DNA of 64,000 nt from an uncultured Nitrospiraceae bacterium (GCA_963727805.1 CAVSHF010000005.1:832001-896000); one strand, 5' to 3'. Shown: positions 21,671 through 64,000, counted from the stretch's first letter. Notes: a model not told the origin generated them from the sequence alone. Translations and numbers: made by a program.

Positions 21671-21949
21671 CTATCTCCGCCCCTCAATCAAAAATATGGA
21701 AAACTCTTTGTTCCCTGCTCCTGCCACATCTCTGACAACCGTCGCGGCCGTTGTGTTGCTGACATCATGGAAGCCCGATTCCTGAAGCAGCTTTTTTAGC
21801 TCTTCACGGTCGAACCCGAAGTGGAACACGCCTGTATTATCGCTGTGGAATAAACCTCCCTCCGCATCGAGATCGGCGAAGCATAGCCGACCTTCCGGCT
21901 TGAGGAGTTGATGCCACATCCTGAACAGCATGCCGGTATCAGGAACATG
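21671..21949 (-). pseudogene. 3' fragment of a class I SAM-dependent methyltransferase gene, truncated by the transposon insertion
   Basis: HVPD..LLKPEGRLCFADLD.EGGLFH..FHFGFDREEL is a methyltransferase C-terminal half; the SAM-binding N-terminus is missing and the frame runs into the transposon end at 21950. Confidence 0.8.
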
Positions 21950-22015
21950 TGTCATTTCCAAAAGATAACTTAACCTAACAACAAATAACTTAACTGATAT
22001 ACAAGATAACTTAAC
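21950..22015 (+). repeat. Tn5053/Tn402-like transposon end: 25-bp terminal repeat plus transposase-binding repeats
   Basis: TGTCATTTCCAAAAGATAACTTAAC (21950-21974); ATAACTTAAC at 21965, 21985 and 22006. Confidence 0.85.
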
Positions 22016-22150
22016 TCACCTAGCCCTTATTCCCTACTAAAGTCGGTCATTATTGCTTATAGGAGGACTTTCTTAATCTCGTTAAGTGCCTCGTTCGGCT
22101 CCGAACACAGGACTTCGAGGCCGGACACTGTTATTTCCTTGCAATATAAG

Positions 22151-23951: not shown

Positions 23952-24386
23952 TGAACCCTCCTAATTTATCTATTAATCTTTAATTCCCATATTGATGCTC
24001 ATCAGCCTGCATCGAACAATCACAGACGTTACGTTCCCCTTGCCGTCGCAAAGGTAGTTGATGCTATCTCCTTACAGCGAAAAATAATAGAAAATACCGA
24101 TGATTTTAAATACCACCCCTAAATTTCTTACAAAAAAGTTCGGCTTGTAAATTGTTTTTTGCCAGCATATCGGATAATAGTATATGTGCTATAAAACAAT
24201 TTTATTTTTTTCAGCAATCGTATCCGGTTTAGCACACCTGTTGATTCTCTTCCCGCCAAAACAAAAGGATTGCCCCCCCCTTTGCAATATCGTATGTGTA
24301 CTTATATCCAGGACTAAGTATGGTATCCCTCGAACTAACTGCTCAACCGTCCCATTTAGACATTCGCCCAAGCGTAGCGACTCCCG

Positions 24387-24782
24387 TCAATTGATAGATC
24401 TGCAAATCACCGCTCCCTCAGCTCCCCATGAAGGCTCCATGACAAACAAAATCAATTCATTGTTCTTTATCTGCTTCAAATATTTACCTATAGCGTCGCT
24501 GGTTATTACAGGTTGTGTCTCATTTGAGCTATGAATCCATTTGACCCACTGAATGATTTCCTTATCATCCAGAGGAATTTCGGTAGAAACAATAAGTCTG
24601 GAAACAACATTCTGAAAATTTAAATCATTGATTCGGAACGAAACAACATCGCTAAAACTCAAATGCGCGGCTATTCCATTTACCCGAATGAAACCAAGCA
24701 ATATTTTTTTCTCTAATCGCTTAATCTCGACAGAGACCAATTCCGCATCATGGAACCCAGACGACAATTCTTCTTTCAGCAT
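24387..24782 (-). CDS. Putative immunity protein for the RHS toxin
   Basis: 131-aa ORF directly downstream of the RHS gene, GGAG RBS, FHDA..PSWGAE motifs. Confidence 0.65.
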   Translation of the reverse strand: MLKEELSSGFHDAELVSVEIKRLEKKILLGFIRVNGIAAHLSFSDVVSFRINDLNFQNVVSRLIVSTEIPLDDKEIIQWVKWIHSSNETQPVITSDAIGKYLKQIKNNELILFVMEPSWGAEGAVICRSIN

Positions 24783-24830
24783 ATCTTTAGCTCCCCAAGC
24801 ATTTAATGAGTTTTGAATCTTATGTTGCCG

Positions 24831-40030: not shown

Positions 40031-40126
40031 AACCGCGAATTTTAACAAATAGAAGAGTTGGAAGCTCAATAAAGGTATGTTCACATGGCTTTAGATAGGG
40101 AAAGTCATCAAAAAGGAGACTATATC

Positions 40127-40738
40127 ATGAAAAAAAGTATGATCGAGCTGACTACAGTACCTTCAAGTAAGAAGAACATCGAAGAATCAGTGTGCGAAAC
40201 ATCTGAGATTCGCTTTTATCGGGCAAATGAGAAACTCTATGGTGCCTTTAGCAATCTCTATCGCAGGAATATTCTTTTTGAGGGGCGGGTGTATCCTTCA
40301 GCTGAGCACGCTTACCAAGCAGGGAAAGCTAGAAAGGAAGCTGTAAGAGAATGGATATTGAGTGCGCCTTCTCCCGCCCTAGTGGCAATGGCGGCTCATG
40401 GACTTTACACTTGGGATATTGTGCCCAATTGGGCTGCTATTAAATTTGAACGTATGCAACAGGTACTGCATGCCAAATTTACTCAACACGATGACCTCTG
40501 TGAATTGCTGCTTTCTACTGGCGATGCGCGACTTGTTGAAGCGGGTACGGTCGATAGTCCTATTAACCGGCTATGGGGCGAAGTAAACGGTAAGGGTCAG
40601 AACATGTTGGGTGTCCTATTAATGAAATTGAGAGTAGCACTACAGAGCGAACTCGCTTTCCAAAAGGACATAACAAAGTGTAGAATTAACAATCTCAGAG
40701 TAATTGGAAGACAGGACACTATTTGTGTAGGGGAATAA
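40127..40738 (+). CDS. NADAR (YbiA-like) family N-glycosidase
   Basis: FSN..YPSAEHAYQA.K, W..K..M..AKFTQH..LLSTG..LVE..WG..GQNMLG..LM..R; AGGAG RBS. Confidence 0.9.
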   Translation: MKKSMIELTTVPSSKKNIEESVCETSEIRFYRANEKLYGAFSNLYRRNILFEGRVYPSAEHAYQAGKARKEAVREWILSAPSPALVAMAAHGLYTWDIVPNWAAIKFERMQQVLHAKFTQHDDLCELLLSTGDARLVEAGTVDSPINRLWGEVNGKGQNMLGVLLMKLRVALQSELAFQKDITKCRINNLRVIGRQDTICVGE

Positions 40739-40758
40739 CATTCTAATTTTTTCTCTAA

Positions 40759-42711
40759 TTGACTAACAAAGTCGTGGGAAAGCCTTATCAATCAGAACTA
40801 AACAAGCTACCCGAGACTTATCGTTGGGCAGTGTCACAAAGTATTGCCCCCCTTGTAAAAGCAATAAAGACATCAGCACATCTTCCTCTGATAGCAGTAG
40901 GGTCTGGTGGCTCGCTGTCTGCTGCCGAAGTTATGGTGTCGTGCCATGAACATTATTTTGGTGGTATTGCTCGGTCGGTCACGCCTTTGGAACTCATATC
41001 AGCGCTCCCTGCAAATGGACATGCATCTGTTTGGTTCTTCACCGCAAGCGGAGGGAATATAGACATTCAAAGAGCTTTCGAGCATACTCTGCTATTAGAG
41101 CCGAAGCAGGTATCTGCAATAGTTGGTCGATCTGGAAGTCCTATGGCGAAGCTTCTTGTTGAACATCAATACGCCGATATCTTTGAATTTGATTTGCCTT
41201 CGGGAAGAGATGGCTTCCTTGCTACAAGTTCCTTACTTGCATTCTCCATTTTGATTTGTCGGGGATACAGCGAAGCCCTGCCCGATAGTGATTTGCCGGC
41301 ATCATTTAGAAGTCTTCTGAAAAAGACGCTGCCTTCGAACTTAACATTAAATCAGATCGAGGACGCCAGCCAATCCCTTTGGCGACGGTCAACATTACAT
41401 GTTCTTTACAGCAATGAGCTCAAGGCGGCTGCAATTGATATCGAGTCGAAATTTATTGAAGCGGGCTTATGCTCAGTGCATTTGGCGGACTTCAGGAATT
41501 TTGCTCATGGCCGTCATCATTGGTTGGCTAAACATGAAGATACAAGTGCTATTCTCGCTTTATCAATACCTTCTGATGCTAACTTAGCAACCCAGACTAT
41601 TAAATTGATACCCAACAACATCCCCCGTCTTCACATTCCAGTACAGACAAGAGGCGCCTCGGCATGGCTTACAGGTTTAATTCTTTCATTGTATTTAACT
41701 GGATATGCCGGCAACGCAAGGAAAATTGATCCGGGACGTCCCGGCGTCCCATCTTTTGGGAGCAAGATATATGGTCTTAATACTATCTCTGGTTTTTTGA
41801 GTTCATTCAGCCGCATCGATGCGGCAATTAGACGAAAGGTAAGCACGCATAAAAGTCTTCTTTCTCCACGTCGAAAGAGGCTTTGGGGAAAAGCTTATCA
41901 TTCTTTTGAGAAACGTCTTTTGAACGCTTATTTTGGCGGCATAGTTATGGATTATGACGGCACCGTTGTTGACAGTCGTAATCGCTATGACCCGCCAACT
42001 GTGGAGATGAGTAAGCAAATAGTGCGATTGCTAAGGGAGGGGATTGTCATAGGTTTTGCTACCGGCAGAGGCAAATCTATTCGTAATGACCTTAGAAGCG
42101 TAATCCCTAAGAAATTCTGGGGACAAGTTTTGGTTGGCTATTATAACGGCGCTGAAATATCACTTCTCACTGATGGTAATGTTCCGGATGGATCGTCACC
42201 TCCTTGCGATGATTTGCAGAAATTACTAAATACCCTAGCTGAAAATATCGAAATAGCCTCCTTGGCAAAAGTGGCACCAAGAAAATTTCAACTAACCATT
42301 GAACCAACGAGTATGGTTCCAGAGACTTTTCTTTGGGAATTAGCACGGAGCGAATTGTGCGCAGCTGAAAATATGTCCGAGAATATCTATCGTTCTAGCC
42401 ATTCAATAGATATCTTGGCACGAGGAGTATCAAAGGTTTCTGTTATTGCGGAAGTTAGCAAGAGAATTGGGCGTAACGTCGACGTGCTAACCATAGGTGA
42501 TCGCGGCAAATGGCCAGGCAACGATTCTACTCTACTAACACACATTTATTCATTAAGTGTCGACGAAGTCTCCTTTTCGAAGGATACCTGTTGGAATGTA
42601 TGCCCTGCCGGTGTGCGGGGGCCGCAGGGAACACTTTATTATCTGAGTAACCTCCTGCCAGTCCCAAGATTGCGTTTCAGTGCCGTTAAGTTTTCTGCAA
42701 TGGGAGAGTAA
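40759..42711 (+). CDS. SIS (sugar isomerase)-like plus HAD hydrolase fusion
   Basis: VGSGGS, TASG.N.D and NFAHGRH (SIS-like); DYDGT, ATGRG, SK..GD.G..GND (HAD); start may be GTG 40774. Confidence 0.8.
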   Translation: MTNKVVGKPYQSELNKLPETYRWAVSQSIAPLVKAIKTSAHLPLIAVGSGGSLSAAEVMVSCHEHYFGGIARSVTPLELISALPANGHASVWFFTASGGNIDIQRAFEHTLLLEPKQVSAIVGRSGSPMAKLLVEHQYADIFEFDLPSGRDGFLATSSLLAFSILICRGYSEALPDSDLPASFRSLLKKTLPSNLTLNQIEDASQSLWRRSTLHVLYSNELKAAAIDIESKFIEAGLCSVHLADFRNFAHGRHHWLAKHEDTSAILALSIPSDANLATQTIKLIPNNIPRLHIPVQTRGASAWLTGLILSLYLTGYAGNARKIDPGRPGVPSFGSKIYGLNTISGFLSSFSRIDAAIRRKVSTHKSLLSPRRKRLWGKAYHSFEKRLLNAYFGGIVMDYDGTVVDSRNRYDPPTVEMSKQIVRLLREGIVIGFATGRGKSIRNDLRSVIPKKFWGQVLVGYYNGAEISLLTDGNVPDGSSPPCDDLQKLLNTLAENIEIASLAKVAPRKFQLTIEPTSMVPETFLWELARSELCAAENMSENIYRSSHSIDILARGVSKVSVIAEVSKRIGRNVDVLTIGDRGKWPGNDSTLLTHIYSLSVDEVSFSKDTCWNVCPAGVRGPQGTLYYLSNLLPVPRLRFSAVKFSAMGE

Positions 42712-42713
42712 AT

Positions 42714-43874
42714 GTGAATCATGCACTCGGACTCCGGGTACTTAGTGAAATAATGGGGTGGGATGATAATCAGGCAAGGACAGAGTTCAGGTGGCTATCC
42801 TTTATGTCTCGATACAAATATGATGGGTATGGAGACTATCTCGCAGGAGCACGTTTTATAGAAAGCCTCGCAACGTGGTTGCAACAATTCAATTTTACAG
42901 ATAGAAGTATTGCTTATGAATACATTAAGAATGATTTGATCTATATTAGTCCTGCTGAAATGCAAAGACTTATTGAAAAGTTGTTTCCTGAAGTTGTTCA
43001 GCGTCATTTAGCAAAGACAGTGGCAACTTATCTTAAAATACCGTCGCACAAGGTATGGGCTAGTAAGGAGACCGTTGAAGAATTTGACTGGCAAAAACGA
43101 AAGACTTTATTCATGAGCTTAAGCGATGGTGCAAGAATTGATATTTTCCGAAGGGTAAATGCTTCGACAATTTCTAATGAGCAGATTGTCGCAGCAACCC
43201 AGATAGATAAAACAAAGTGGGGAAGCTTAATAAAGGACTTAAGAGACGATCTGGATAAACTACGTCCCGGGCAGGGCAGGAATGCCACCGTGTCTCGAAT
43301 TTATCTGATAGATGATTTTACGGCATCAGGAACAACCTTGCTTAGGTATGATGAGAAAGAAGCAAATTATAAAGGCAAACTCGATAGATTTTATAATTCA
43401 ATCGATTTTGCTCAGAACGAATTGAAATCTGATTTTGGAGATATTCTTGATAAAAAATGGGAGCTTATTATCCATCATTATATCGGGACCGAACAGGTAA
43501 CTCATGTCATAAAGAAAAGGTATGAAGAATCACTATCCATAAAGGCAACGTGGAATCCAAGAGTCGACTTCACTTTTGGCATGATTCTCGCCCAAAATAC
43601 AGCATTGGACAAGCAGTCTAATCACCCATTCGTTGAACTATGTAAAAAATATTATGATCCTTCACTCGAAGGCAAGGGCTTGCACGCTGGTGCGAGCGGT
43701 AATCCTGACCTGACTTTTGGCTATGGTCAATGTGCGCTACCTCTCGTTCTCGAACACAATACGCCTAACAATTCACTACCTTTAATGTGGGCTGAGACCA
43801 GAGGGGCAAACGGACGACATGCTATGCGACCACTTTTTCGGCGAAGACAGAGATACAGTGATTTAGCCGAGTGA
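42714..43874 (+). CDS. Phosphoribosyltransferase-like conflict effector (PRTase-CE type)
   Basis: IYLIDDFTASGTT PRPP-binding loop; GYG..L..HNTPNNSLP..W..PLF.R. Confidence 0.78.
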   Translation: MNHALGLRVLSEIMGWDDNQARTEFRWLSFMSRYKYDGYGDYLAGARFIESLATWLQQFNFTDRSIAYEYIKNDLIYISPAEMQRLIEKLFPEVVQRHLAKTVATYLKIPSHKVWASKETVEEFDWQKRKTLFMSLSDGARIDIFRRVNASTISNEQIVAATQIDKTKWGSLIKDLRDDLDKLRPGQGRNATVSRIYLIDDFTASGTTLLRYDEKEANYKGKLDRFYNSIDFAQNELKSDFGDILDKKWELIIHHYIGTEQVTHVIKKRYEESLSIKATWNPRVDFTFGMILAQNTALDKQSNHPFVELCKKYYDPSLEGKGLHAGASGNPDLTFGYGQCALPLVLEHNTPNNSLPLMWAETRGANGRHAMRPLFRRRQRYSDLAE

Positions 43875-43880
43875 CAGAAT

Positions 43881-45821
43881 ATGGCAAATCCATTTGAAAA
43901 GAGGGCTACTGAGTATCTGCGTGATGACGCAGCGTTTCTTTCGGTAATCACACCGGAACCTTTGCACACTTTCTTTGAGCGTCATGCCAAAGCTGGAACT
44001 CTTTACGACAGGCTTTGCATGGTTATTGGAACCCCGGGTAGCGGCAAGACAACCATTGCCACTCTGCTTCAGTTGCGGACAGTTGAGACTTTACTGAATA
44101 GTTCAAACATAGAAGAATATAAAGTTCTATTACATGCATTAACAAGATGTGGCGTTGTAAGAGAAAAGAAAATTGAAATTGTTGGATGTCGGCTACCCCT
44201 TGAGTCAGAATATCGAGAATTCTGGGAACTCCCATACAAGGAAGATATCAAGATTGGATTGGTAAAGTCCTTTATTCAATCGAGAGCAATTATTTCTTGG
44301 ATGAAAAACCTAGAAGCAAACGGACGTTATAAGCTGGATAACATAAATATAGTGTATCGGGATGGGACTGAAGCTGCGTCTGAGGCAGTTGGGGGTGTTA
44401 CCGCCTCTAATGTCTTTAGCAAAGCGAAAATAGTTGAACGGTCAATATACGAAATAGGTGCCGCTCTCATCCCGCCAAGTGAGAGTTCCCTGAAGAATGA
44501 AGTTATAGCTCCATACCATCCTTTTGATATTATCAATTACTTTTTAATCGATGAATCCGCAACAGGGACGCAAAGAAAGCTAAAACCATTAGTGATGCTA
44601 GACGATGCACACACGCTTCATCCAAAACAACTTTTGGAGGTACAAAATTGGTTGGCTAGAAGGGAGATGACAATTGGACGTTGGCTATTGATGCGGCTAG
44701 ATGCGCAAACGCCTAAGGAGATTATTGATAGCTTCGGGACAGATGCTGACGTCGAGGGAGAATCAAGGATCAACAAGAGTCGCGAAATAACGCATATCTG
44801 GCTTCAAAGTGGTGTGGGACGGCGGAGGCAGCGGGAAGATTTCCGAAAAATGGCCAGGAGTATGGCAGATAAGTATTTACGGTTAATGCCCCTCTTTACT
44901 CGCCAAGGGATTTCTCGTTTCTCGGATATCCTGGGTATTAATGTAAAAGAAATATCTGATACTAAGATGAAAGATCTTGAAAAGCAAGTGAGCAAACTTC
45001 AGAAACAAAAGGGGATAAGTAATCCGCGAAGAGGAAGTTTAGAAGGTGATATCGACAGATATTTCGATAATTCTGATACAGCTGATAAGGGACAAGATGT
45101 CCGTTTAGCGATGCTTCATATAATGTTTCATCGCTATGCCAACAGGGTTCCACAAAAGAGCCTGTTTAATATAGGCGAAGAGGATTATGGACCGGACCCA
45201 TCTAAGCCACTAAAGGTAACATCTGCACTTGCCGACGGTGCAAGAATATTCTTACTGCATAAGTATAGTCGACCCTATTATTACGGTATAGATACTTTAT
45301 GCGATGGAAGTTCCGAAAATGCTGAATTGTTTCTGCAATTAGCAGGCAGATTAGTGGAAGCGGCTGAAGCTCGCATCATAAAATCGCCGAATGAGAATGC
45401 AGCACTGGCTCCTCAATATCAGCATCAATTGCTCACTGAACGTGCAAGAGAGATTGTTGACGACTGGTCTTTTCCAGCTTTTAACGAGGTCAAAGCCCTT
45501 TGCGCTCACATGGCGAAGCAGTGTGTAGAAAAATCTCTTGAACCTAATGCTCCTTTAGACGGGGGGGCAATAGCATTTGGAATATTGCAAGATGAGTTTG
45601 ACGAAATTGCGACAAATCATCCCGAGCTGGCAAAAGTCATTAAGTTTGGCGTGGCATATAACGCAATATCGTTAAGACATAGATATTTGGCGAAGAACAA
45701 GGAATGGTGTTTAATCGAACTAACAGGGCCTGTTCAAATTGTATATGGGTTAACTTTGAACAGAGGCGGCTTTTTAGAAAGACGCGTCCCAGATTTATTG
45801 AAGGCACTGGAGAAGAAATAG
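43881..45821 (+). CDS. ORC/CDC6-like (STAND-related) P-loop ATPase
   Basis: N-terminal NPF..RA.E, Walker A GTPGSGKT, Walker B VMLDD, YYYG..S.N. Confidence 0.75.
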   Translation: MANPFEKRATEYLRDDAAFLSVITPEPLHTFFERHAKAGTLYDRLCMVIGTPGSGKTTIATLLQLRTVETLLNSSNIEEYKVLLHALTRCGVVREKKIEIVGCRLPLESEYREFWELPYKEDIKIGLVKSFIQSRAIISWMKNLEANGRYKLDNINIVYRDGTEAASEAVGGVTASNVFSKAKIVERSIYEIGAALIPPSESSLKNEVIAPYHPFDIINYFLIDESATGTQRKLKPLVMLDDAHTLHPKQLLEVQNWLARREMTIGRWLLMRLDAQTPKEIIDSFGTDADVEGESRINKSREITHIWLQSGVGRRRQREDFRKMARSMADKYLRLMPLFTRQGISRFSDILGINVKEISDTKMKDLEKQVSKLQKQKGISNPRRGSLEGDIDRYFDNSDTADKGQDVRLAMLHIMFHRYANRVPQKSLFNIGEEDYGPDPSKPLKVTSALADGARIFLLHKYSRPYYYGIDTLCDGSSENAELFLQLAGRLVEAAEARIIKSPNENAALAPQYQHQLLTERAREIVDDWSFPAFNEVKALCAHMAKQCVEKSLEPNAPLDGGAIAFGILQDEFDEIATNHPELAKVIKFGVAYNAISLRHRYLAKNKEWCLIELTGPVQIVYGLTLNRGGFLERRVPDLLKALEKK

Positions 45822-45823
45822 CC

Positions 45824-46921
45824 ATGGCCATTCCGTCTTGGCATAAGTCTATTGACCATTATGATAAAGATGTTAGCATTTTCTATGTACTTCACTTCTC
45901 GGAAGCACATAGAAAATGCCTGCTTATTGCAGGAGCCGGGTTCGACCCAAGGACAACTGTCCTCGCAAGAGAACTTTCGGCTACGCTAGGAAATCGATTG
46001 GAAGCCCTGTTTATAAGGGAAGAGCGTCCAAACCCAGATACTACACTTGTTGAGCGGGCTGAAAGAAACTTAAGTTCCCTTCAGCAGATGTGCCCAATTA
46101 ATCGGGTTCTCAGCATTGCTGTATTTTCTGATGATAATGCTGTTGTTGGAGGCATTAATGCAGTTTCTAACATAGTGAACGTCGACTTGGCATCCTATAC
46201 AGATATAATTATAGATTTCAGTGCGCTATCGATAGGCATCAGTTTTCCGGTGGTCAAGTATATTTACGATAGCCTTCGGAAGGATGGAACCAATACCAAT
46301 ATTCATTTGGCGGCTGTTTCCAATCCCGAATTGGATTCATTAATATCGTCTGTTCCAAATGATCGAGTAACAGAGGTGCGTGGATTCTCTCGAATTGATA
46401 AACTTTATGGAGAGGTCGAAAAAGCAAAACTTTGGCTTCCTCAATTGTCAGGAGGCAGGCACGAGACTCTAAGAATAATATTTGATGATGTTAAGCCTCA
46501 CGACTGCTGCCCAATTTTACCTTTCCCTTCCGATGACGCAAAGAAAGGCGATAACTTGGCGGCCAACTTTATATCAGAACTGGAAAATGAATGGAATGTT
46601 GATACAAGGAATTTTGTGTATGCTGATGAACGAAATCCGTTAGATATCTACAGAACGATTTTACGGATAGATGAGGAACGCAAGCCAGTTTTTGAAAGTT
46701 TCGGAGGTTCCGTTATAATTCTGTCGCCTCTCGGCAGCAAAATGCTTGCTATGGGAGCACTGATTGCTGCTTTAGAAAAACATTTTCCAGTGGTTTACGT
46801 TGAAGCTTTGGAGTATAATGTGGATTGGCATCGCGTAGATGCTATAACTGGAAATGCCTCAATGTCAGCTCACATTTGGTTATATGGTGAAGCCTATTTA
46901 AGAGATATTCGTAATGCCTAA
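45824..46921 (+). CDS. Hypothetical protein in the operon (alpha/beta, possibly CARF-like)
   Basis: ATG 2 bp after the ATPase stop; GFDPR, IIIDFSALS and LSPLGSK motifs. Confidence 0.7.
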   Translation: MAIPSWHKSIDHYDKDVSIFYVLHFSEAHRKCLLIAGAGFDPRTTVLARELSATLGNRLEALFIREERPNPDTTLVERAERNLSSLQQMCPINRVLSIAVFSDDNAVVGGINAVSNIVNVDLASYTDIIIDFSALSIGISFPVVKYIYDSLRKDGTNTNIHLAAVSNPELDSLISSVPNDRVTEVRGFSRIDKLYGEVEKAKLWLPQLSGGRHETLRIIFDDVKPHDCCPILPFPSDDAKKGDNLAANFISELENEWNVDTRNFVYADERNPLDIYRTILRIDEERKPVFESFGGSVIILSPLGSKMLAMGALIAALEKHFPVVYVEALEYNVDWHRVDAITGNASMSAHIWLYGEAYLRDIRNA

Positions 46922-47990
46922 AGATATGAGAAACATTTCCCATAAAAATAAACCGAGAGTGTTTGGCACAGGGCTCTTTGCTCTGGATGTCGTTCTTAGT
47001 GCAGATCCAGCGGAGCCTATTTATTGTTGGGCCGGCGGCACCTGTGGCAATGTTTTGATAATATTGAGTTATCTGGGCTGGAGAGCATCTCCCATCGCAC
47101 GGCTTAACGGGGATCCCTCATCGATACGTGTAAAAGACGATATGTCTCGATGGGATGTGAGCCTTGCTTTTGCTAAGCAGTCTCCGACTGCTACTACACC
47201 TATTATTGCTCAGCAAAACTATCGTGATAAAGGCGGAGATGCGACCCATAAATTTGCTTTTACCTGTCCGATGTGTGGTGCGTCATTACCTTTTTACAAG
47301 GCAGTTCCAAATATTGCAGCGAAGCGCATTGCTGAGCAAATAGAGAATCCTCACGTATTCTTTTTCGATAGAGTATCGGTTAGTGCGCTAACCTTAGCGA
47401 AAAGGTGTAAAGAACTCGGAGCGGTTATTTTCTTTGAACCATCTGCTAAAGGTGACCCCAAGCAATTCTCGGAGGCGGTACAGTTGGCTCATGTCATTAA
47501 GTACTCGCAAGAACGTTTTAGTTTTTTTGTTGACGAGTATAAATCGGCTGGAGAATTGCCCTTCATAGAGATTCAAACGATGGGACGGGAAGGATTAATA
47601 TTTCGTTCAAGTCTGCCTAATGCGAAATCAGAGGAATGGACAAAGCTACCGGCAACGGCTGTAGAACAGGTCGAAGATACGTGTGGTTGCGGTGACTGGA
47701 CCACTGCTGGCCTTATATCGAAATTGTGTGATGTTGAAGGAGTAGAAGGGCTTAAAACAAAGTCTTTGAAAGATATTATGCGTGCTTTGAATTTTGGACA
47801 GGCTCTAGCTTCTTGGAATTGCAGGTTTGTGGGAGCTCGGGGCGGAATGTATCGAGTTGACAGGAGAAGATTTGAAAGAGAAATATCGGAAATTACCAAT
47901 GAGAGTGTCCAAATGACAAGAACGCATACGAAGAAATTATACGATGAGACACCAATGAGAATGATTTGTCCATCCTGCTGCGGAACCTAA
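46914..47990 (+). CDS. PfkB/ribokinase-family carbohydrate kinase with CxxC motifs
   Basis: GGTCGN and DTCGCGDWTTAG; CPMC and CPSC. Confidence 0.85.
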   Translation: MPKDMRNISHKNKPRVFGTGLFALDVVLSADPAEPIYCWAGGTCGNVLIILSYLGWRASPIARLNGDPSSIRVKDDMSRWDVSLAFAKQSPTATTPIIAQQNYRDKGGDATHKFAFTCPMCGASLPFYKAVPNIAAKRIAEQIENPHVFFFDRVSVSALTLAKRCKELGAVIFFEPSAKGDPKQFSEAVQLAHVIKYSQERFSFFVDEYKSAGELPFIEIQTMGREGLIFRSSLPNAKSEEWTKLPATAVEQVEDTCGCGDWTTAGLISKLCDVEGVEGLKTKSLKDIMRALNFGQALASWNCRFVGARGGMYRVDRRRFEREISEITNESVQMTRTHTKKLYDETPMRMICPSCCGT

Positions 47991-49452: not shown

Positions 49453-50613
49453 ATGCCGCAAATTCACATTAAGTTGGACAAGGCGACACACGAAAGATTG
49501 AGCAAAAAAGCTCGAGAGTTCAACTTTAGCATCCAGGAATTCGCCGAAAGGGCCCTGTCGCTGGCGGTTGACAACCCGCTTGAAACCATTTTCTCCTCCA
49601 AAAATAATGAAGACAGTAATTCAGAGACTTTGTTTACATTTATCGACCTGTTTGCCGGGATTGGAGGGATACGCTTGGCACTGGAACAGAATAAAGGGAA
49701 ATGTATTTTTTCTTCAGAATGGGACAGGTGGTCACAAAAGACATACTTTGACAACTTCGGAGAAATGCCTGCAGGAGACATTAATGAAGTTCGGTTGAAG
49801 GAGATTCCCGATCATGACATCCTATCAGCTGGATTTCCTTGCCAGCCCTTCTCTATAGCTGGAGTCTCCAAGAAAAAAAGTCTCGGGAAAGAACACGGCT
49901 TCAAGGATAAAACTCAAGGGACACTTTTTTTCAAAGTCGCCGAAATTATCGAGGCCAAGCGACCCAAGGCGTTCCTGCTCGAAAATGTTAAACACCTGAG
50001 AAATCACGACAGGGGGCAGACCTTCGCAATCATCGAGGGTACTCTCCGGGAACTCGGATATACTATTGTCCATGATATAGTCAACGCTGCTCACTATGTC
50101 CCGCAGCACAGGGAAAGGCTTTTTATTGTAGGCTTCAATAGGGATATTTACGGCGAAAAAGTGGACTTTAATTTCCCAGAAATACCCAACGCAAACCCAC
50201 ACCTTGGCTCTATTCTTGAAAAGAGGGTAGATGCCAAATATACGCTGTCGGATAAGCTGTGGAAATATCTTCAGGACTACGCTGAAAAACACCGCCGGAA
50301 AGGAAACGGCTTTGGTTATGGGCTGTTCGGCTCGAAAGATGTGGCACGCACGCTAAGTGCCAGATACCATAAGGACGGGTCAGAAATTCTTATAAAGAAC
50401 GGGAATTTAAATCCACGCAGGCTCACACCGCATGAATGTGCCAGACTCATGGGATTCCCTCACAACTTCAAGATAATGGTATCCGATACGCAGGCATACC
50501 GGCAGTTCGGAAATTCCGTAGTTGTTCCGGTCGTTGCTGCCGTTGCCTCGGAGCTGGTCAAAGCCGCTGGGCTGGGTGCGGCGTCAACCCGACAGTCCGT
50601 ACGGAATGGCTGA
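49453..50613 (+). CDS. dcm: C5-cytosine DNA methyltransferase (Dcm/M.EcoRII-like) with N-terminal RHH-like extension
   Basis: FIDLFAGIGG, GFPCQPFS, ENV, PQHRER, TLSARYHKDGSEILI and QFGNSV. Confidence 0.92.
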   Translation: MPQIHIKLDKATHERLSKKAREFNFSIQEFAERALSLAVDNPLETIFSSKNNEDSNSETLFTFIDLFAGIGGIRLALEQNKGKCIFSSEWDRWSQKTYFDNFGEMPAGDINEVRLKEIPDHDILSAGFPCQPFSIAGVSKKKSLGKEHGFKDKTQGTLFFKVAEIIEAKRPKAFLLENVKHLRNHDRGQTFAIIEGTLRELGYTIVHDIVNAAHYVPQHRERLFIVGFNRDIYGEKVDFNFPEIPNANPHLGSILEKRVDAKYTLSDKLWKYLQDYAEKHRRKGNGFGYGLFGSKDVARTLSARYHKDGSEILIKNGNLNPRRLTPHECARLMGFPHNFKIMVSDTQAYRQFGNSVVVPVVAAVASELVKAAGLGAASTRQSVRNG

Positions 50614-51067
50614 TATTGTCGACACTGCTACCAGAAGCAGGATGATGGCTGGGATCAGAAGCAAGGACACCGGTCCCGAACTTGAAATAAGGAAAAAACT
50701 TTTCGCAAAGAGATTTCGCTACCGCCTTCATGACAGGAGGCTGCCCGGGAAACCGGACATAGTACTCCCCAGATACGGGGCGGTTATCTTCTTCCACGGA
50801 TGTTTCTGGCATGCCCACGATTGTCATCTATTCAGATTGCCTTCTTCCCGCGTTGCTTTCTGGGAGAAGAAACTGCTTCGGAATGCAGAAAAGGACAGGG
50901 AAAGCCGTGACGAACTGAAAGAACTTGGCTGGCGTATCATGACCATATGGGAATGTTCTTTCAGGGGTCCCGGGAAAAAAAGGGATAAAGAGATTGATGC
51001 AATTATCGCAACGGCTGTACAATGGCTGCAATCGGGGAAGAACGATGATATTGAAGTCAGGGGATAA
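50606..51067 (+). CDS. vsr: Very short patch repair endonuclease
   Basis: MADIVD..RSRMM..I.SKDT.PE, LPGKPD, FHGCFWHAHDC and WEC; overlaps the MTase stop. Confidence 0.93.
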   Translation: MADIVDTATRSRMMAGIRSKDTGPELEIRKKLFAKRFRYRLHDRRLPGKPDIVLPRYGAVIFFHGCFWHAHDCHLFRLPSSRVAFWEKKLLRNAEKDRESRDELKELGWRIMTIWECSFRGPGKKRDKEIDAIIATAVQWLQSGKNDDIEVRG

Positions 51068-51073
51068 ACAGAG

Positions 51074-51829
51074 ATGACTATAAGTTTGTTCGATGTACAC
51101 AGAAAACTGATGCCCTCGCCGACGGAAGTAATAAACGAAGCTATAGAAAGAATACTCGTGCCACCCGATAATACTCCCGTCTATATCAAAAGCAATTTCA
51201 GTAAGCTTGTTGAGGAAATACAGGTTGATGCTTATGAAATATACTTGAAAGCTGAAAATGCTATTGGCCAAGAAACCTTTAAGAAGGCCTTGTCCGACAG
51301 ATGTCCGGAAGATGCAAGCAGGGATGAAGTCATCAAGATTGTCTGTTCGATGTTTCATGAATTCGACAGGTTCTATCTGTCGCTGACGCAGTCCCGCAGA
51401 CCGCGGGCTGGCAGTGCTTTTGAAATAGTACTGAAGACCCTGTTTAAACACATGAAATATCCGTTCGATGAACAACAGGTGATAAACGGCAAGCCTGATT
51501 TTCTTATGCCGAGCAAGAAGCATTACGACAAAAACCCAATGGACTGCATCATATTCACCGCAAAAAGGAGTCTGAGGGAGAGATGGCGTCAAATTGTTAC
51601 CGAGGGCACAAGAGGGCTGGGATTTTATCTTGCCACAATCGATGAGGCTGTTAGCCCCCCTCAGCTGGAGGAAATGTTAAACCACAGGATTTATGTCATT
51701 GTTCCTATCAATATCAAGCAAAAGGTAAAGGTATATGCTGACGCACAGAATGTCATAACCTTTGAGGAGTTTTTCAGACACCATCTGGACCCTGCGGTAG
51801 ACCGATGGAGAGATAAAGGAGTCATATAG
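51074..51829 (+). CDS. Type II restriction endonuclease, EcoRII C-terminal-domain family
   Basis: SRR.RAG.AFE, KPDFLMP and AKRSLRERWRQ. Confidence 0.85.
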   Translation: MTISLFDVHRKLMPSPTEVINEAIERILVPPDNTPVYIKSNFSKLVEEIQVDAYEIYLKAENAIGQETFKKALSDRCPEDASRDEVIKIVCSMFHEFDRFYLSLTQSRRPRAGSAFEIVLKTLFKHMKYPFDEQQVINGKPDFLMPSKKHYDKNPMDCIIFTAKRSLRERWRQIVTEGTRGLGFYLATIDEAVSPPQLEEMLNHRIYVIVPINIKQKVKVYADAQNVITFEEFFRHHLDPAVDRWRDKGVI

Positions 51830-55750: not shown

Positions 55751-55779
55751 TTTACAGCGAACGTTCGTTCGCCTATAAT
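55751..55779 (+). promoter_or_regulatory. lexA promoter containing a CGAAC-N4-GTTCG SOS box
   Basis: TTTACA-gCGAACgttcGTTCGcc-TATAAT with a 17-bp spacer. Confidence 0.8.
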
Positions 55780-55785
55780 AAAAGT

Positions 55786-56379
55786 ATGTCAAAAGCAATT
55801 TCTGCGGATGCACTCCAAGAGAGAGCTGATAAAATTAGAGACTTTTACTCAGCTAGAGATCGAATGCCGAGCTATTCTGAAATTGCCGGGATATTGGGAT
55901 TCAACTCAAAAAGTTCGGTATTCAAACTAATCGCAAAACTTGAGCAGAATAATTATCTTTTACGAGATGAAACCGGCAGGCTTATCCCTGGGCAGATGAA
56001 ACACTCCCTTCGTGTTTTGGGCACCATCGAAGCTGGGTTTCCAAGTCCGGCCGAAGAGGAACTCGCCGATACACTTTCGCTGGATGAATTGCTCATTAAA
56101 AACCCTCAGGCAACATTTCTTCTGAAGGTATCCGGTGATTCCATGTCTGAAGCAGGGATATTGCCTGGTGACATGGTCATAATTGATCGCTCGCTGGAGC
56201 CAAAAGGCGGCGATATAGTAATCGCTGAAGTGGACGGCAATTGGACGATGAAGTATCTCGACAAACAGGGTGACGAAGTAACTTTGGTACCTGCTAATCG
56301 GAAATATAAACCTATTAAACCACTACGAGAGTTAAAGATCGCCGGGGTTGTCACTTCAGTCATACGAAAATATCAATAA
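55786..56379 (+). CDS. lexA: LexA-family repressor
   Basis: PSYSEIA..GF.S HTH, AG cleavage site (EAGFP), VSGDSM catalytic Ser, TMK catalytic Lys. Confidence 0.9.
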   Translation: MSKAISADALQERADKIRDFYSARDRMPSYSEIAGILGFNSKSSVFKLIAKLEQNNYLLRDETGRLIPGQMKHSLRVLGTIEAGFPSPAEEELADTLSLDELLIKNPQATFLLKVSGDSMSEAGILPGDMVIIDRSLEPKGGDIVIAEVDGNWTMKYLDKQGDEVTLVPANRKYKPIKPLRELKIAGVVTSVIRKYQ

Positions 56380-56393
56380 CCTTTTGACAGTTC

Positions 56394-57410
56394 ATGACCA
56401 AGAAATCGTCACCTAAATTAAAAGACCTAGCTGCGATGAGCCGCAAATGGCCTAAGCTTGGCAAGGCCGAGGCTGATAAGTTAATGCAGGACATTGAAGG
56501 GATGAGGCATCCAGTCTGCCCAGTCTGCGCAGAAAAAGATGCTGTCAGCAGGGACAACTTTGAACTGCCCTCTGAGGTGGACTTTACTGGTGGGGTGCGG
56601 GGTAGATTTTATAAGAAACCATGCAGAAAGGGAAAAAACAATATGGAAATATTATCGGAGAAAATCACAGAAGTATGCGATATGGAAGTCGAGTTTAAAG
56701 GTCGGGAACACCAGGTTCTTTACGAACATGCCAAGAAGAATATGCCCAAGAAGATACTGGACGGTCTTATGATTAGCTGGGCTCTTGGCGATATACTGCG
56801 GAAGAAGTTAAAGGAACTAAGAGACAAAATGAGTCCGCAGGCGCGAGCGGCGGCTGAGAAGAAAACACAACGGATGGAGCTTGCCTTAGATATCACCGAA
56901 AAACTTTTCGGAGAAGCTCCACTTCACTTAAAGAGACCACAGACGGTCGAACTTGCCAAACTCAAGATACGACAACTTCTTGTTCTCGCGCAAGTAAAGG
57001 CCTTACCTATCCCAAAAGACATCAGGGAGAAGATCGTTACTTCGCTTGGGAGCGACAACATTGTGGTGCGCATGGAGAAGAGGTGGCGTATTGTCAGAAC
57101 TGTAATATCTGCTGAAAGGGAAGGTCTTTACGAAGCTGCCGAACACGCAACGGGAGAAGTTTTAACGGATCTGTGTGAGGGCGTTACTCCGCAGAACGGG
57201 CATGGAGAAGTAGATTTCAAGCCTTGCCCTGTAAAGCTAAAGAAAGAAGGGAAGGTATGGATAGCAAGCTGTCCTAGTCTGGATATCCACTCTCGGGGAG
57301 CGACAAAAAACAAGGCTAGGGAAAACCTCGGCGAAGCCATTCGCCTTTTCATAAAAACATGCTCTAGCAGGGGAACCCAAGAAAATGACCAGAAAAGAAA
57401 AGACATATAG
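56394..57410 (+). CDS. Mosaic protein of antitoxin-like segments with a C-terminal HicB-like domain
   Basis: HicB-like aa 280-328; MazE-like aa 256-275; HigA-like aa 137-165; BrnA/CopG-like aa 56-76. Confidence 0.6.
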   Translation: MTKKSSPKLKDLAAMSRKWPKLGKAEADKLMQDIEGMRHPVCPVCAEKDAVSRDNFELPSEVDFTGGVRGRFYKKPCRKGKNNMEILSEKITEVCDMEVEFKGREHQVLYEHAKKNMPKKILDGLMISWALGDILRKKLKELRDKMSPQARAAAEKKTQRMELALDITEKLFGEAPLHLKRPQTVELAKLKIRQLLVLAQVKALPIPKDIREKIVTSLGSDNIVVRMEKRWRIVRTVISAEREGLYEAAEHATGEVLTDLCEGVTPQNGHGEVDFKPCPVKLKKEGKVWIASCPSLDIHSRGATKNKARENLGEAIRLFIKTCSSRGTQENDQKRKDI

Positions 57411-57927
57411 GTTTGCCGCCGTAGCGTACAATGTTGATCCTGAACTAGTCGATAACAGGACAGTCCGGATAATGAAGGTCAAGGCCTTACGATCAGATTC
57501 TTCAGAGAAAATCGCAGAGAATCGAATAGAGAAGCTGAATAAGCAGACAGGAGTCACATGGACGCTCCACAGCGAACCTCACAGATTGTCGGACCGCCAG
57601 GAGCGGGCAAATAGAATGGCCAGGTTTACGGGGCGAGCGAACGACGCTATGTGGGCGACTATTATGTCGCATCGGGATTTCTGGGGCGAGATTGAAAAAC
57701 TGACACAGTCAGAGAAATATATGTCTGCGAAAGGTCCTGACCGGGTGCTTATGAAAATCGAGCTGCTGCACGGGAAAGTCGGAAATACGGAATCACTTCG
57801 GGAAGCTGCTGAGTTTGCTAGGTTAGCCGCGTTGGAGACGACGCGAAAGGTGTACCGGCGGAGCACGAAGAAATGCGGACGCCATACCCATGGAATCGAT
57901 GCGCGAAGCAGTGAGGGGGCTGCATAA
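57385..57927 (+). CDS. Hypothetical protein
   Basis: 180-aa ORF overlapping the upstream gene. Confidence 0.5.
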   Translation: MTRKEKTYRFAAVAYNVDPELVDNRTVRIMKVKALRSDSSEKIAENRIEKLNKQTGVTWTLHSEPHRLSDRQERANRMARFTGRANDAMWATIMSHRDFWGEIEKLTQSEKYMSAKGPDRVLMKIELLHGKVGNTESLREAAEFARLAALETTRKVYRRSTKKCGRHTHGIDARSSEGAA

Positions 57928-58223
57928 ATTTGGACTCATAACTACGAAAGAGAACGGTGATATATCGAAGGCAAGACGCAGGTGTAATTTTTTCTATCTG
58001 TCAGTGGACCTCAATAAAGAAAACCTTGAACTCTCCGATAAGATATATTATGTGTTCCGGGGAGGTTGCAGTATGGGCGAGAAGTGGAGTAGATGCAATC
58101 ATTTGTAAATCTATAAGTATGAAAAAGATGAAAGACATAGGAAGCGAAAAAGCAACAAATGATTTAAATGATAGTAGCATAAAGTGCGATACAATAATTA
58201 AGGAGTAACGGAGGATTGATCAT

Positions 58224-61694: not shown

Positions 61695-62924
61695 TTAAAT
61701 GCCCCTCTTATCCCCTGTTCCTTTTTTCGTTATCGCCCCGATCCTTACATTGTTTCTGGCAATCAAATCTCTTATGTCCCCTCTCTCATCAAGATGTAGA
61801 AAATTCCCCGTTGTTTTCAAGACACTTTCTCTACAAACTGCTATATGTCGCCTCTTTAGATGTTCGATAACGCTCTGTATCTCATCACAGGTTATAGCGT
61901 AATACTCCATACTGAAGGGATCAGCAATAACCTTATAAAAAAAGGGCAGGTAGAGCAGATCTTTTGTCAATTCTGTCTTTCCTAATTCATTCCTTTCGCA
62001 GAATGTTATAAGATTTTCGGGGAAATTCTCAAAGATCATTATTAATCCCGAAAATAACAGGTACTGAATCTTTAATGGGATATCATAGAAAAGAATATGC
62101 CTCCGCTTAATGACAGGAAAGTCAATTCGTTGTGCCATGGATTCATGGTCCAGTAACCCCTTATCGAATCCCCAGTTGTAGGCAATTTTTATAAACTGCT
62201 GCAAGACACTGTAAAACAGAAATGAATAGGCATAGCGATCGCCGAAACTGAAGATACCAGTCTCCAAAATTTTATATAGCTCTTTTATGGCCCTCAGCCC
62301 ATATGAGTCTGGGTCTACAAACTCTGGTTCCGATTTTGAGAAGTCAAATCCGCACTTATAACAGATCGGGAAATTCTTGTAATAATAACTTCTTCTCAGC
62401 GTTATCGGTATACCGCACTGGGAGCACCGGTCTAATAAGAAGCATCCATGAACAATGCAGGCAGTCGAAAAAGAAAGCCTCCACCTCTTCCTAAAATATC
62501 TGGCGTGGTGCGCTTTTAAGCATAGTGGGCAAAACCTCAGACCGTATCCCTTCGTTATCCTGCTGCGGATAACCAGGGGCTGTATGAATGGCATGCTTGT
62601 GGCTGATATCTCTTCGGCAAGATACCCCTGGTAGGACTTGAGAGTAAGGTTGCAAAGTATTTCATTGCTCAAGAGACACTTGTGCTCAAGCGCCTCCAAA
62701 AGCTTTTGATCAGGTGAAATATCCACATCTCTTGTCCATAAGATATTTTTCCATTCGGGCAGATAAAGGTTTACAAATGTGGCAGGATCCGTCAAGTGAG
62801 CAAGGGCAGTTCTAGTCAGCCATGAACTGAGAAGTTCATCATCCTGAGGAGTAAGACAATATCGGAATTTGTTATTTGCGAAATTGATACGCTTGCTGTC
62901 TATCTTATAAGCAAGAAGGCTCAT
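61695..62924 (-). CDS. tniQ: TniQ-family transposition protein
   Basis: P..DELLSSWL.R.A, RFCPLCL..W....C..H..L.DRC..C and CYKCG; ATGA overlap with the tniB stop. Confidence 0.88.
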   Translation of the reverse strand: MSLLAYKIDSKRINFANNKFRYCLTPQDDELLSSWLTRTALAHLTDPATFVNLYLPEWKNILWTRDVDISPDQKLLEALEHKCLLSNEILCNLTLKSYQGYLAEEISATSMPFIQPLVIRSRITKGYGLRFCPLCLKAHHARYFRKRWRLSFSTACIVHGCFLLDRCSQCGIPITLRRSYYYKNFPICYKCGFDFSKSEPEFVDPDSYGLRAIKELYKILETGIFSFGDRYAYSFLFYSVLQQFIKIAYNWGFDKGLLDHESMAQRIDFPVIKRRHILFYDIPLKIQYLLFSGLIMIFENFPENLITFCERNELGKTELTKDLLYLPFFYKVIADPFSMEYYAITCDEIQSVIEHLKRRHIAVCRESVLKTTGNFLHLDERGDIRDLIARNNVRIGAITKKGTGDKRGI

Positions 62925-63823
62925 ACATCTACCAGTGCAAGCCCGCGTCTCTGGGATGGCCTGATAAATCCACACTCCTTTATAATATCCTCTGTTATCT
63001 TCTCGCTACCTGATTTTATCCCAAATATGGCCGCCTCGCTGATGACGCTGATTATCTCCCCAATTAATCCCTCGCTTAAAGCCAAGACCGTCCTGCCTAT
63101 TTTGCTGTTTGTCGATATCTTGGAGAGTTTTCTTAACGGCAACATCATTTCTATGCTTGCAAGCAGGGATGCGTAATCCGCATTGAGTCTCCAAAGCGGG
63201 AGCAACATTGGCCTGAATCTACTACTGATCTGCATGTCGGTACTGGTGGCATTTAGAGCATCCTTTATACCAACAAGGACTATAGGTAGCATCAGCGCAT
63301 TGCTGATATTCTTCAGCGCGTTCATAAAAGCTTTCTGCTTTGGAACCGACCCACTTAAGATATTGTGGATCTCATCTACAATGAGCACCCCAACGCCCAT
63401 ACTTTCAAAATGATATTTTATTTCTGATGCCTTTTTAGTTAAAGAATCGCTCTTTCTGTGGGGAATTAGTATTGTGTCCAGGATTGCATCATAAAGACCG
63501 TTCGGATCAGGAGTGATCGGTGCCTGCACACAAACTACCGACATTGCCGGTTCTTCCCTTCCATCCGTTGGCAGATGTAATCTCTCGAATTTCTTAACCA
63601 GACTCGTTTTGCCGTTATGACTGTCACCAATAATCAAAAGACATGGCATCCTCGATTTCTTCGGTTCATTTAACAGGTCCTCCATCTTCAGGAGAATTAC
63701 TTCAGCCTTTGGATACATAATAAATTTGTCCGCCTTTATATATCGTATCCGTTCGCGGTCAGGGCTCCACAGCAGTTCCTCTGCTTCCGGGCTTAGAACT
63801 ATTTTATCCTGCACAATATCCAT
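62921..63823 (-). CDS. tniB: TniB-family NTP-binding protein
   Basis: P..SRMPCLLIIGDSHNGKT, LIVDEIHN.L.G, VLVG..Q..SRF and SEG.IGE. Confidence 0.92.
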   Translation of the reverse strand: MDIVQDKIVLSPEAEELLWSPDRERIRYIKADKFIMYPKAEVILLKMEDLLNEPKKSRMPCLLIIGDSHNGKTSLVKKFERLHLPTDGREEPAMSVVCVQAPITPDPNGLYDAILDTILIPHRKSDSLTKKASEIKYHFESMGVGVLIVDEIHNILSGSVPKQKAFMNALKNISNALMLPIVLVGIKDALNATSTDMQISSRFRPMLLPLWRLNADYASLLASIEMMLPLRKLSKISTNSKIGRTVLALSEGLIGEIISVISEAAIFGIKSGSEKITEDIIKECGFIRPSQRRGLALVDV

Positions 63824-64000
63824 CAACGTCTTTCATCCTCATCTGACTCTCTGCGAATCACTTCTATGTCTTTGAAAGGCTTGGGGTTTGTAAAAATATC
63901 ATCAACCCGAGCTTCCACCGCTTTCCGAGTGCTTTCAGGTTCGTCCTTAACAGCCTTATGAAGAGGTTCGGCTTTCCCTTCGTCCGTCTGTCCCGTGCCT
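63823..64000 (-). CDS. tniA: C-terminal end of a TniA/TnsB-like DDE transposase (partial, runs off the window)
   Basis: ..DDIFTNPKPFKDIEVI..* ending; TGATG coupling to tniB. Confidence 0.6.
   Translation of the reverse strand, partial: GTGQTDEGKAEPLHKAVKDEPESTRKAVEARVDDIFTNPKPFKDIEVIRRESDEDERR

Follow-up and report, generated by a model that had tools for sequence, protein, structure and literature searches.

What is a long reading frame that seems to be put together from parts of several unrelated antitoxins, and what would its product do in the cell? This question is raised by P0001, a frame in the 64,000-nt stretch of DNA from an uncultured Nitrospiraceae bacterium which was analysed here and is called the window in the following. 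A preliminary description had taken it for an SOS-linked antidote that neutralises many type II toxin-antitoxin (TA) toxins of host or competitor.

The reading frame and its promoter

The locus comprises the following elements:

55751..55779, plus strand: promoter with -35-like and -10 hexamers and, between them, a palindromic operator (55757-55772)
55786..56379, plus strand: LexA-like repressor (HTH and peptidase S24), first gene of the operon
56394..57410, plus strand: mosaic ORF P0001, 338 aa, starting 14 nt past the stop of the lexA-like gene
57385..57927, plus strand: 180-aa marker gene without family match, in relatives fused to antitoxin pieces and adjoining tniQ
57890..58000, plus strand: a further piece of the cassette in a different frame (43% to part of the 282-aa mosaic at locus L023); we take it to be antitoxin-derived

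P0001 runs over 338 codons without a stop, and the remaining five frames contain 4-20 stops each. An open run of this length has a composition-based chance of about 2e-9, which bears out the description as one open 338-aa frame. The end of P0001 overlaps the start of the 180-aa gene. Searched as a whole protein against Pfam, NCBIfam, PADLOC, PHROGs and PDB sequences, it yields no significant family. The best match is PHD_like at aa 280-317 (E 0.034), no Pfam HicB cut-off is passed, and the HicB-like part makes up 51 of the 338 aa. Pfam and PADLOC did not return an effector domain either. With tblastn against plasmids, three weak HicB matches and one unannotated match were obtained. The structural model of P0001 is unreliable outside aa ~110-260 because the supplied alignment is deep only there, and a Foldseek-type fold search with it gave no match at E 0.001. 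Family libraries alone thus do not reveal the mosaic.

Promoter and operator are kept at two related loci, L021 and L035. This palindrome, likewise 27 nt from the start, also precedes a host operon with a lexA-like gene and a gene which we take, from its sequence type, to be dinB. The operator pattern occurs 11 times in the genome, two of these matches being at that promoter position. We infer that 55757-55772 is a LexA box. The LexA-like protein of the window shares 64% identity with the host's only other LexA-like gene. At other cassette loci the lexA-like gene is present in two of eight; four of the misses are 12-kb stretches, the other two contigs of 8.1 and 4.5 kb. What remains of the claimed SOS link is a LexA-type operator in the window and a putative damage control which would extend to two of the eight other loci.

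The cassette as cargo of a Tn7-like transposon

The surroundings of P0001 contain the following transposon parts:

21950..22025, plus strand: left end of a 44.7-kb Tn7-like element, the right end of which lies beyond the window at position 898665 of host contig C5 (host genome G000)
61695..62975, minus strand: TniQ (Pfam PF06527)
62921..63826, minus strand: TniB/TnsC ATPase (Pfam PF05621)
Beyond the window, after TniB/TnsC: TnsB- and TnsA-like genes, labelled from sequence type and order

The transposon shows a 5-bp target duplication, ACATG, and three repeated transposase-site-like motifs. The window cassette lies between ends with this duplication, together with TniQ and TniB/TnsC genes, and hence is transposon cargo. 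At L021, L137, L138 and L139, too, tniQ adjoins the cassette; the L023 cassette adjoins a DnaC-like gene instead. No PIN, PemK, HicA, BrnT or Gp49 gene was matched within the transposon. The neighbours of P0001 are the LexA-like gene and the 180-aa gene, and the earlier observation that no toxin gene is nearby holds for these toxin families throughout the element.

The further cargo is diverse. Past the left end it begins with a repeat protein that looks secreted and an RHS protein of 1401 aa (21918-22016, 22377-29036), and it includes a PRTase/CARF-type cluster (40085-47990) and a Dcm-Vsr-EcoRII-C set (49453-51829). A PDC-S42-like gene, a match to the PDC-M42 model, a nucleoside deoxyribosyltransferase and an HD-domain gene were also seen.

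Modules of P0001 and their donors

To trace donors, pieces of P0001 were searched against genomes of the same phylum, and the matched genes and their neighbours were inspected. Profiles of one half of stand-alone antitoxins place six antitoxin-derived pieces, which cover 246 of the 338 aa; with one unplaced module the composition is as follows (E of the half-profile in brackets):

56418..56504, plus strand: module 1, aa 9-37, C-terminal tail from antitoxins of the Phd family standing before PIN/VapC; Phd domain missing (0.04, the weakest)
56535..56615, plus strand: module 2, aa 48-74, N-terminal part of BrnA following BrnT; C-terminal half missing (4e-11)
56643..56801, plus strand: module 3, aa 84-136, unplaced; a separate 78-85-aa gene at L023, L030 and L036
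56802..56873, plus strand: module 4, aa 137-160, N-terminus of HTH antitoxins following a Gp49/HigB-type toxin; HTH missing (6e-7)
56874..57161, plus strand: module 5, aa 161-256, helical domain from the C-terminal end of an undescribed Phd-type antitoxin paired with a GNAT-like gene; Phd domain missing (1e-29)
57162..57218, plus strand: module 6, aa 257-275, MazE C-terminal tail; AbrB domain missing (6e-6)
57225..57377, plus strand: module 7, aa 278-328, N-terminal domain of HicB-like antitoxins preceding HicA (3e-21)

For each of the six half-profiles, P0001 is the sole match among 47,364 six-frame ORFs of the host. Significant matches are therefore not confined to the HicB part, and the view of a single ORF as a mosaic of unrelated antitoxin pieces is upheld by these profiles of stand-alone proteins.

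The donors of module 1 are 90-94-aa Phd-family antitoxins, with a VapC-type gene directly downstream at 13 of the 14 loci inspected and Pfam confirmation of three phd-vapC pairs. To find them a five-row profile was needed (A3, 251 genomes, best E 1.7e-9; E in the reverse direction 0.04). A single-sequence search with aa 1-40 in 201 genomes had returned one non-self match, which is not an antitoxin; a second A3 match, at G000 C5:68687, covers 17 residues in an unrelated frame and was left out of the counts. Module 2 is 68% identical to L006, and its donors are BrnA genes after brnT (L006, L037, L040, L018), with Pfam BrnA/BrnT. For module 4, which lost its first residues at a deletion joint, the donors are HTH proteins of 104-110 aa, only two of which were found (L017, L128); the one at L128 comes after a frameshifted Gp49-type toxin gene. 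Four of the seven non-self matches of module 6 are mazE genes before mazF, the remaining three being chance matches. Module 7 shares 50-54% identity with L003 and L004, both before Pfam HicA genes. Compared with L021, the window carries 30 extra nt in frame between modules 1 and 2 (56500-56540), with a brief tandem duplication from which a CPVC motif arises.

Thus five of the seven segment labels given in the preliminary description stand: the Phd/VapB-type tail (aa 9-38), which agrees with the Phd-tail profile and the phd-vapC donor loci; the BrnA/CopG-type N-terminus (aa 56-76), as BrnA; the HigA-type N-terminus (aa 137-165); the MazE tail (aa 256-275), with its mazE donors; and the HicB-like part (aa 280-328). 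The two others, an addiction-module-like stretch at aa 196-218 and a HigA-like one at aa 239-255, turned out to be parts of one helical domain (aa 161-256), and the module at aa 84-136 had been missed.

Which half of the antitoxin was kept

Thirteen stand-alone antitoxin families were cut in two at Pfam-guided boundaries and 27 mosaic proteins were searched. The half without the DNA-binding domain matched mosaics in 13 of 13 families, a count which is partly circular as donors had been found by use of the pieces. Not circular is the count for the DNA-binding half, which matched in one of 12 families (in P0049), nor the finding that 12 of the 13 donor families adjoin a Pfam toxin. For BrnA, the CopG-like and one HTH family we took the C-terminal half to be the DNA-binding one, and HicB was left unlabelled. 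The N-termini of BrnA, HigA-type antitoxins and HicB are presumably toxin-binding parts.

In both MazE and Phd/YefM, toxin binding resides in the C-terminal tail, according to the accessible portion of PMC4803016; for BrnA, that of PMC5086665 holds no domain map. As stated in the available text of PMC10440598, a SUMO fusion of just the Phd-C region neutralises the corresponding toxin.

There are exceptions among the mosaics: whole HigA HTH domains in many of them, an AbrB domain in L021 and a Phd domain in some mosaic. Non-antitoxin pieces were found as well, namely the N-terminus of a 373-aa protein at L035 and a NusG piece at L025. Within P0001 the DNA-binding halves of the donors remain unmatched, in line with the claim that DNA-binding domains are absent; for module 3 this absence is uncertain since the ESM Atlas gives aa 84-136 a lean towards a ribbon-helix-helix (0.87), which is no more than a lead. 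At the level of sequence these comparisons establish P0001 as a string of unrelated type II antitoxin pieces, each being the half without the DNA-binding domain of its donor.

Related cassettes

Eight relatives of P0001 emerged from 5.8 billion similarly long proteins. These have only 19-60% of the query in common and then continue with other pieces, e.g. TacA1 tails or HigA domains. L021 and L035 show the order lexA-like gene, mosaic ORFs and marker gene, with promoter and operator as in the window, and have three mosaic ORFs of differing content; homologues with shuffled segment order behind the same lexA-like gene, which had been proposed as a check, do therefore exist. Further mosaics were found at L023, L027, L030, L032, L137, L138 and L140, and among database proteins (P0013, P0031, P0046, P0049, P0057, P0159). 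They reach 495 aa. Additional donor families in the relatives are FitA-like/VapC, CopG/BrnT, HVO_A0114/TumE, Phd/ParE, the C-terminal part of MbcA/ParS, and DUF2442. Sequence by sequence, these relatives shuffle, gain and lose pieces, and no toxin gene appears to travel with them. At L032 the mosaic is followed by a mazE-like gene that is intact and then by a toxin-like ORF, which we count against a toxin sponge.

The marker gene has strong matches (profile A8) in four of 68 genomes of the family; the copies at L137:5518-7002, L138:3963-4430, L139:8061-8609 and L140:4967-5449 often stand directly after tniQ. The profile of module 3 (A7) had no match in 250 other genomes of the class, and viral contigs gave no relative with profiles A2 or A7.

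Some neighbouring genes deserve mention. Beside the 495-aa mosaic at L137 there are two genes without an evident toxin, an orphan MbcA/ParS-type antitoxin gene (5102-5518) and a 105-aa gene of module 5 alone (7258-7572). At L025:113-1229 an N-terminal piece of NusG is joined to a cassette segment, and behind it stands a fusion of module 5 with DUF2442; the NusG fusion may be a captured piece of a housekeeping gene or a chimeric contig. A Cys-rich segment, not antitoxin-like and of no clear family, is found in mosaics at L035:8490-8796 (minus strand) and L138:4739-5296.

Assembly, joints and capture of pieces

Misassembly of the whole ORF was considered and rejected. A contig from another study covers the part from the lexA-like gene to module 3, with 92 differences and 2 gaps in ~1,420 nt relative to the window, and another one covers modules 5-7; where this could be tested, most junctions recur in other samples. 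Two joints derive from deletions:

56811..56819, plus strand: first deletion joint, in frame, at a short imperfect microhomology that reads K-E-L in both parents
57373..57383, plus strand: second deletion joint, which removes the post-HicB modules of the relatives (TacA1 tail and others)

Both parents of the first joint are present in contigs of public runs, one continuing past 56818 as P0160, another entering at 56817 as P0002. This evidence consists of loose contig ends in runs X1 and X2 and of the comparison with L021/L022; no contig bridges 56811-56819 among the matches listed (22 of 25 pieces). Stretches lacking contig cover, this joint included, carry no weight in either direction. Across the second joint, by which the next gene is brought up against P0001, run X1 has an identical contig (57194-57587); this run may be that of the source sample. 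The parent contigs together with the L021/L022 comparison point to the window gene as an in-frame deletion fusion. All six joints of P0001 are in frame, for which the chance is 1.4e-3 with the strand given.

Two pieces still match their presumable sources at the DNA level. The L027 piece (88 nt, 86% identity) and the L035 piece (112 nt, 84% identity) each match an antitoxin-type gene of G000 beside a PIN-type gene, and the L027 match starts where the N-terminal half of the donor ends. Both matches suggest that TA operons of this lineage were the source of captured pieces. A dedicated recombinase or a repeat for capture was not identified; short-homology recombination appears to have joined the pieces in frame after their uptake from such operons of the host lineage.

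Across 55786-57927, dS between the window and L021 or L035 varies from 0.24 to 1.2 among genes of the same cassette pair. This unevenness suggests recombination among cassettes or replacement of modules.

Selection on the pieces

dN/dS was estimated for 47 aligned pairs, 3 of lexA and 44 of cassette modules, with at least 45% identity and at least 30 columns. The lexA pairs gave 0.06-0.15. For the cassette modules the values were 0.13-0.61 in 38 of 44 comparisons, the other six being saturated, and the bootstrap interval stayed below 1 in 36 of these 38; one interval for module 1 includes 1. The pairs are non-independent, the identity filter favours low values and some of the signal may predate capture. 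Stretches across shared joints gave 0.25 (0.13-0.41), 0.29 (0.17-0.45) and 0.30 (0.12-0.61); because they span the joints, these values reflect mostly the history after fusion. The region with modules 1-3 has a dN/dS of 0.25. As judged from these ratios, the cassette pieces are conserved at the protein level, under purifying selection.

Module 5 and a putative GNAT-like toxin

For module 5 the partner of the donor was modelled as well. Of 31 stand-alone module 5 proteins scanned, 24 have PF02604 (Phd/YefM) at E up to 0.1, three of the 31 above the curated cut-off. Where the context is known (L026, L028, L029, L031, L033, L034), the donor precedes a gene of 170-226 aa that has no Pfam or NCBIfam match. 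The model of this partner (pLDDT 61, pTM 0.61) has only GNAT-fold chains as its top structural matches, with middling Z of at most 6.7 and an rmsd of 3.9 over 96 aligned positions; Foldseek gave no match at E 0.001.

AlphaFold2 modelled aa 151-250 as a helical unit with pLDDT >90. In complex prediction, aa 158-258 of P0001 and the L034 partner reached 0.90, against 0.43 for the best of three controls. Of the solved pairs 116 of 157 attain this mark, of the mismatched ones 2 of 215; these counts are only roughly valid for the present alignments. The runs share at least 91% of contacts, with a partner pLDDT of at least 88. As neither chain has a significant PDB match (by sequence, and by Foldseek where tested), the high score is less likely to reflect structures already known to the predictor, and we take it as support. 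Conservation is higher at the predicted interface, which includes aa 178, 233, 237 and 246, than elsewhere (0.65 vs 0.43, 52 non-mosaic rows). There, P0001 agrees with the family consensus at 25 of 30 positions, as compared to 25 of 66 others. On the strength of this model, aa 158-258 is predicted to bind the GNAT-like partner of the donor pair, a partner which stems from another organism. The pair of a Phd protein and a GNAT-like gene was seen at L034:9776-10920, L028:1749-2725, L029:3-1116 and L033:2264-3151. It is a candidate for an undescribed TA system with the GNAT-like protein as the putative toxin.

Targets, proposed role and alternative explanations

Resident toxins are not an obvious target, contrary to what had been supposed for host toxins. 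The host genome G000, 100% complete, has no PemK (MazF), HicA or BrnT match and none to profiles of the matching VapC clade or of the GNAT-like partner; it has five PIN matches of other clades and one Gp49 match with a different antitoxin. This scarcity of evident resident targets fits protection from incoming or past elements, and also loss of use. G003, yet another carrier of the cassette, has one PemK, three HicA and five BrnT matches, so that carriage does not purge such genes. Several TA-type pairs (two PIN, one Gp49, one HigA) are located on the 109-kb contig C4 of G000, which is possibly a plasmid.

We consider it probable that P0001 is a poly-antitoxin, a toxin sponge against addiction and TA-based defence. 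TA operons of the host lineage would have supplied the pieces, which short-homology recombination would have fused in frame, and selection would retain the toxin-binding halves. When DNA is damaged or a new cell is entered, self-cleavage of the LexA-like repressor would switch on the operon, each module binding its own toxin family: VapC, BrnT, HigB/Gp49, the GNAT-like protein, MazF and HicA. TA promoters would not be bound, the loss of the DNA-binding halves avoiding their repression or titration. The carrier cell would thereby be shielded from post-segregational killing and from TA-based suicide caused by co-resident or incoming elements. Each individual module is probably narrow in range, so that breadth would come from their number. 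The window copy is a shortened derivative, and some of its short modules may be non-functional by now.

Could the cassettes instead be a graveyard, in which TA operons inserted at a hotspot beside tniQ were stripped of their toxins and shrank by deletion to useless fused remnants? The deletion joints do sit at microhomologies, frameshifted or isolated fragments occur at 57890-58000 (out of frame) and in L022/L024, the MazE tail has drifted and decayed in P0002-P0004, module content differs between almost all copies, and the cassette is rare, as the searches with A7 (0 of 250 other genomes of the class) and A8 (strong in 4 of 68 family genomes) illustrate. Random decay, however, would not remove the DNA-binding half in 11 of 12 families and spare the other half. 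ORFs of 300-495 aa that remain open across many joints, dN/dS well below 1 over shared joints, interface residues that are kept, and a conserved promoter and operator speak against it as well; we regard this explanation as unlikely. Decay is most visible in the short modules, and these might be mere passengers of a functional poly-antitoxin family in which activity is confined to one or two folded modules (aa 161-256, HicB). Only aa ~130-260 are modelled with high confidence (the alignment being deep only there), and the aa 161-256 domain also exists as a lone 105-aa orphan gene in L137. The region of modules 1-3 has a dN/dS of 0.25 too, however, and many mosaics repeatedly contain short neutralising tails that are 55-86% identical to those of donors; such a restriction to folded modules is very unlikely.

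The product might also act on regulation, either by stripping toxins from TA repressor complexes and thereby de-repressing or priming TA and defence operons during the SOS response, or as bait for Lon/Clp proteases or phage proteins. Toxins serve as co-repressors in type II systems (PMC4487406, in its accessible part), which speaks for such a role, as does the surrounding defence cargo (PRTase/CARF-type, PDC-S42, PDC-M42, Dcm-Vsr-EcoRII-C). In a version of it, the aa 84-136 module, with its ribbon-helix-helix lean, or retained HTH domains, such as the whole HigA domains of many relatives, would bind DNA. But most DNA-binding halves were removed, the host is without most of the matching operons and P0001 is devoid of a detectable effector domain, and the idea is compatible with toxin binding anyway; as a separate explanation we hold it to be quite unlikely. 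Going further than the poly-antitoxin reading, one could see in the cassettes an acquired heritable memory of TA systems, for which the transposon would go on capturing neutralising antitoxin halves, add them in frame to ever longer polyproteins and express these upon DNA damage to disarm many addiction and TA-defence toxins together. This extension is tentative and, in our judgement, has somewhat less than an even chance.

Relation to known systems

The comparison with published systems is based on the accessible parts of the papers cited. The nearest analogy are the polyimmunity proteins (PMC3482391), which likewise combine unrelated antidote domains in one chain, mostly in toxin-free operons, and were proposed to provide pre-emptive defence. 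These consist of SUKH, SuFu and Imm domains against delivered polymorphic toxins, whereas the mosaics consist of trimmed type II antitoxin pieces, would be directed against intracellular toxins, belong to Tn7-like elements and in three cases stand behind a LexA-like gene. P0001 has the same layout, with six antitoxin-derived modules and no toxin neighbour, but differs in its domain families: no SUKH, SuFu or Imm-type Pfam match was found in it, and P0013 has one weak Imm41 match (E 0.009, under the cut-off). If both are of the same kind, the mosaics would be a variant of polyimmunity proteins with different parts, targets and trimming.

Orphan antitoxins share with P0001 that a toxin-free antitoxin on a mobile element is proposed, or was shown, to act against host or competitor TA systems, as in T4 Dmd, the DarG-like phage enzymes (PMC11825919) and the antitoxins of plasmid leading regions (PMC11541004); in the accounts available these are single whole antitoxins, not concatenated trimmed pieces. 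In chromosomal anti-addiction TA modules (PMC12548467) an antitoxin cancels plasmid toxins in trans, but the modules described there are complete TA pairs of one family each. Panacea/PanA antitoxins (PMC8832971, PMC10440598) face many toxin folds with portable neutralising regions; there, as far as described, one domain is shared and each gene has its own toxin, whereas P0001 has no Panacea match in Pfam at E up to 1 and no cognate toxin. AID clusters (10.1101/471110) are mobile arrays of acquired orphan immunity genes too, though according to the available text separate, unfused whole genes against type VI secretion toxins rather than TA antitoxins. In an ordinary type II TA operon the cognate toxin gene adjoins the antitoxin, which is not the case for P0001, and HicB antitoxins are short single-family proteins encoded with HicA, in contrast to the 51 of 338 aa of HicB here. 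We found no description of fused, trimmed type II antitoxin pieces in the literature searched, which is largely open-access. In summary, the architecture is real and selected, it is apparently undescribed, and the poly-antitoxin function is predicted.

Implications

If functional, the mosaics would represent a general counter-measure to type II TA systems, the known counter-measures being one antitoxin per system, and would give direct evidence that TA toxins, in their role as addiction or defence modules, cost a mobile element enough to evolve a broad antidote. The long-argued anti-addiction idea would become testable one module at a time. The trimmed minimal pieces could yield neutralising peptides for more than a dozen families, and the unplaced modules a route to new TA pairs. 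Should the reading as a memory prove true, the array would be a pointer to TA pairs that are still undescribed, such as that of the Phd-type antitoxin and its GNAT-like partner, and a natural map of minimal neutralising peptides.
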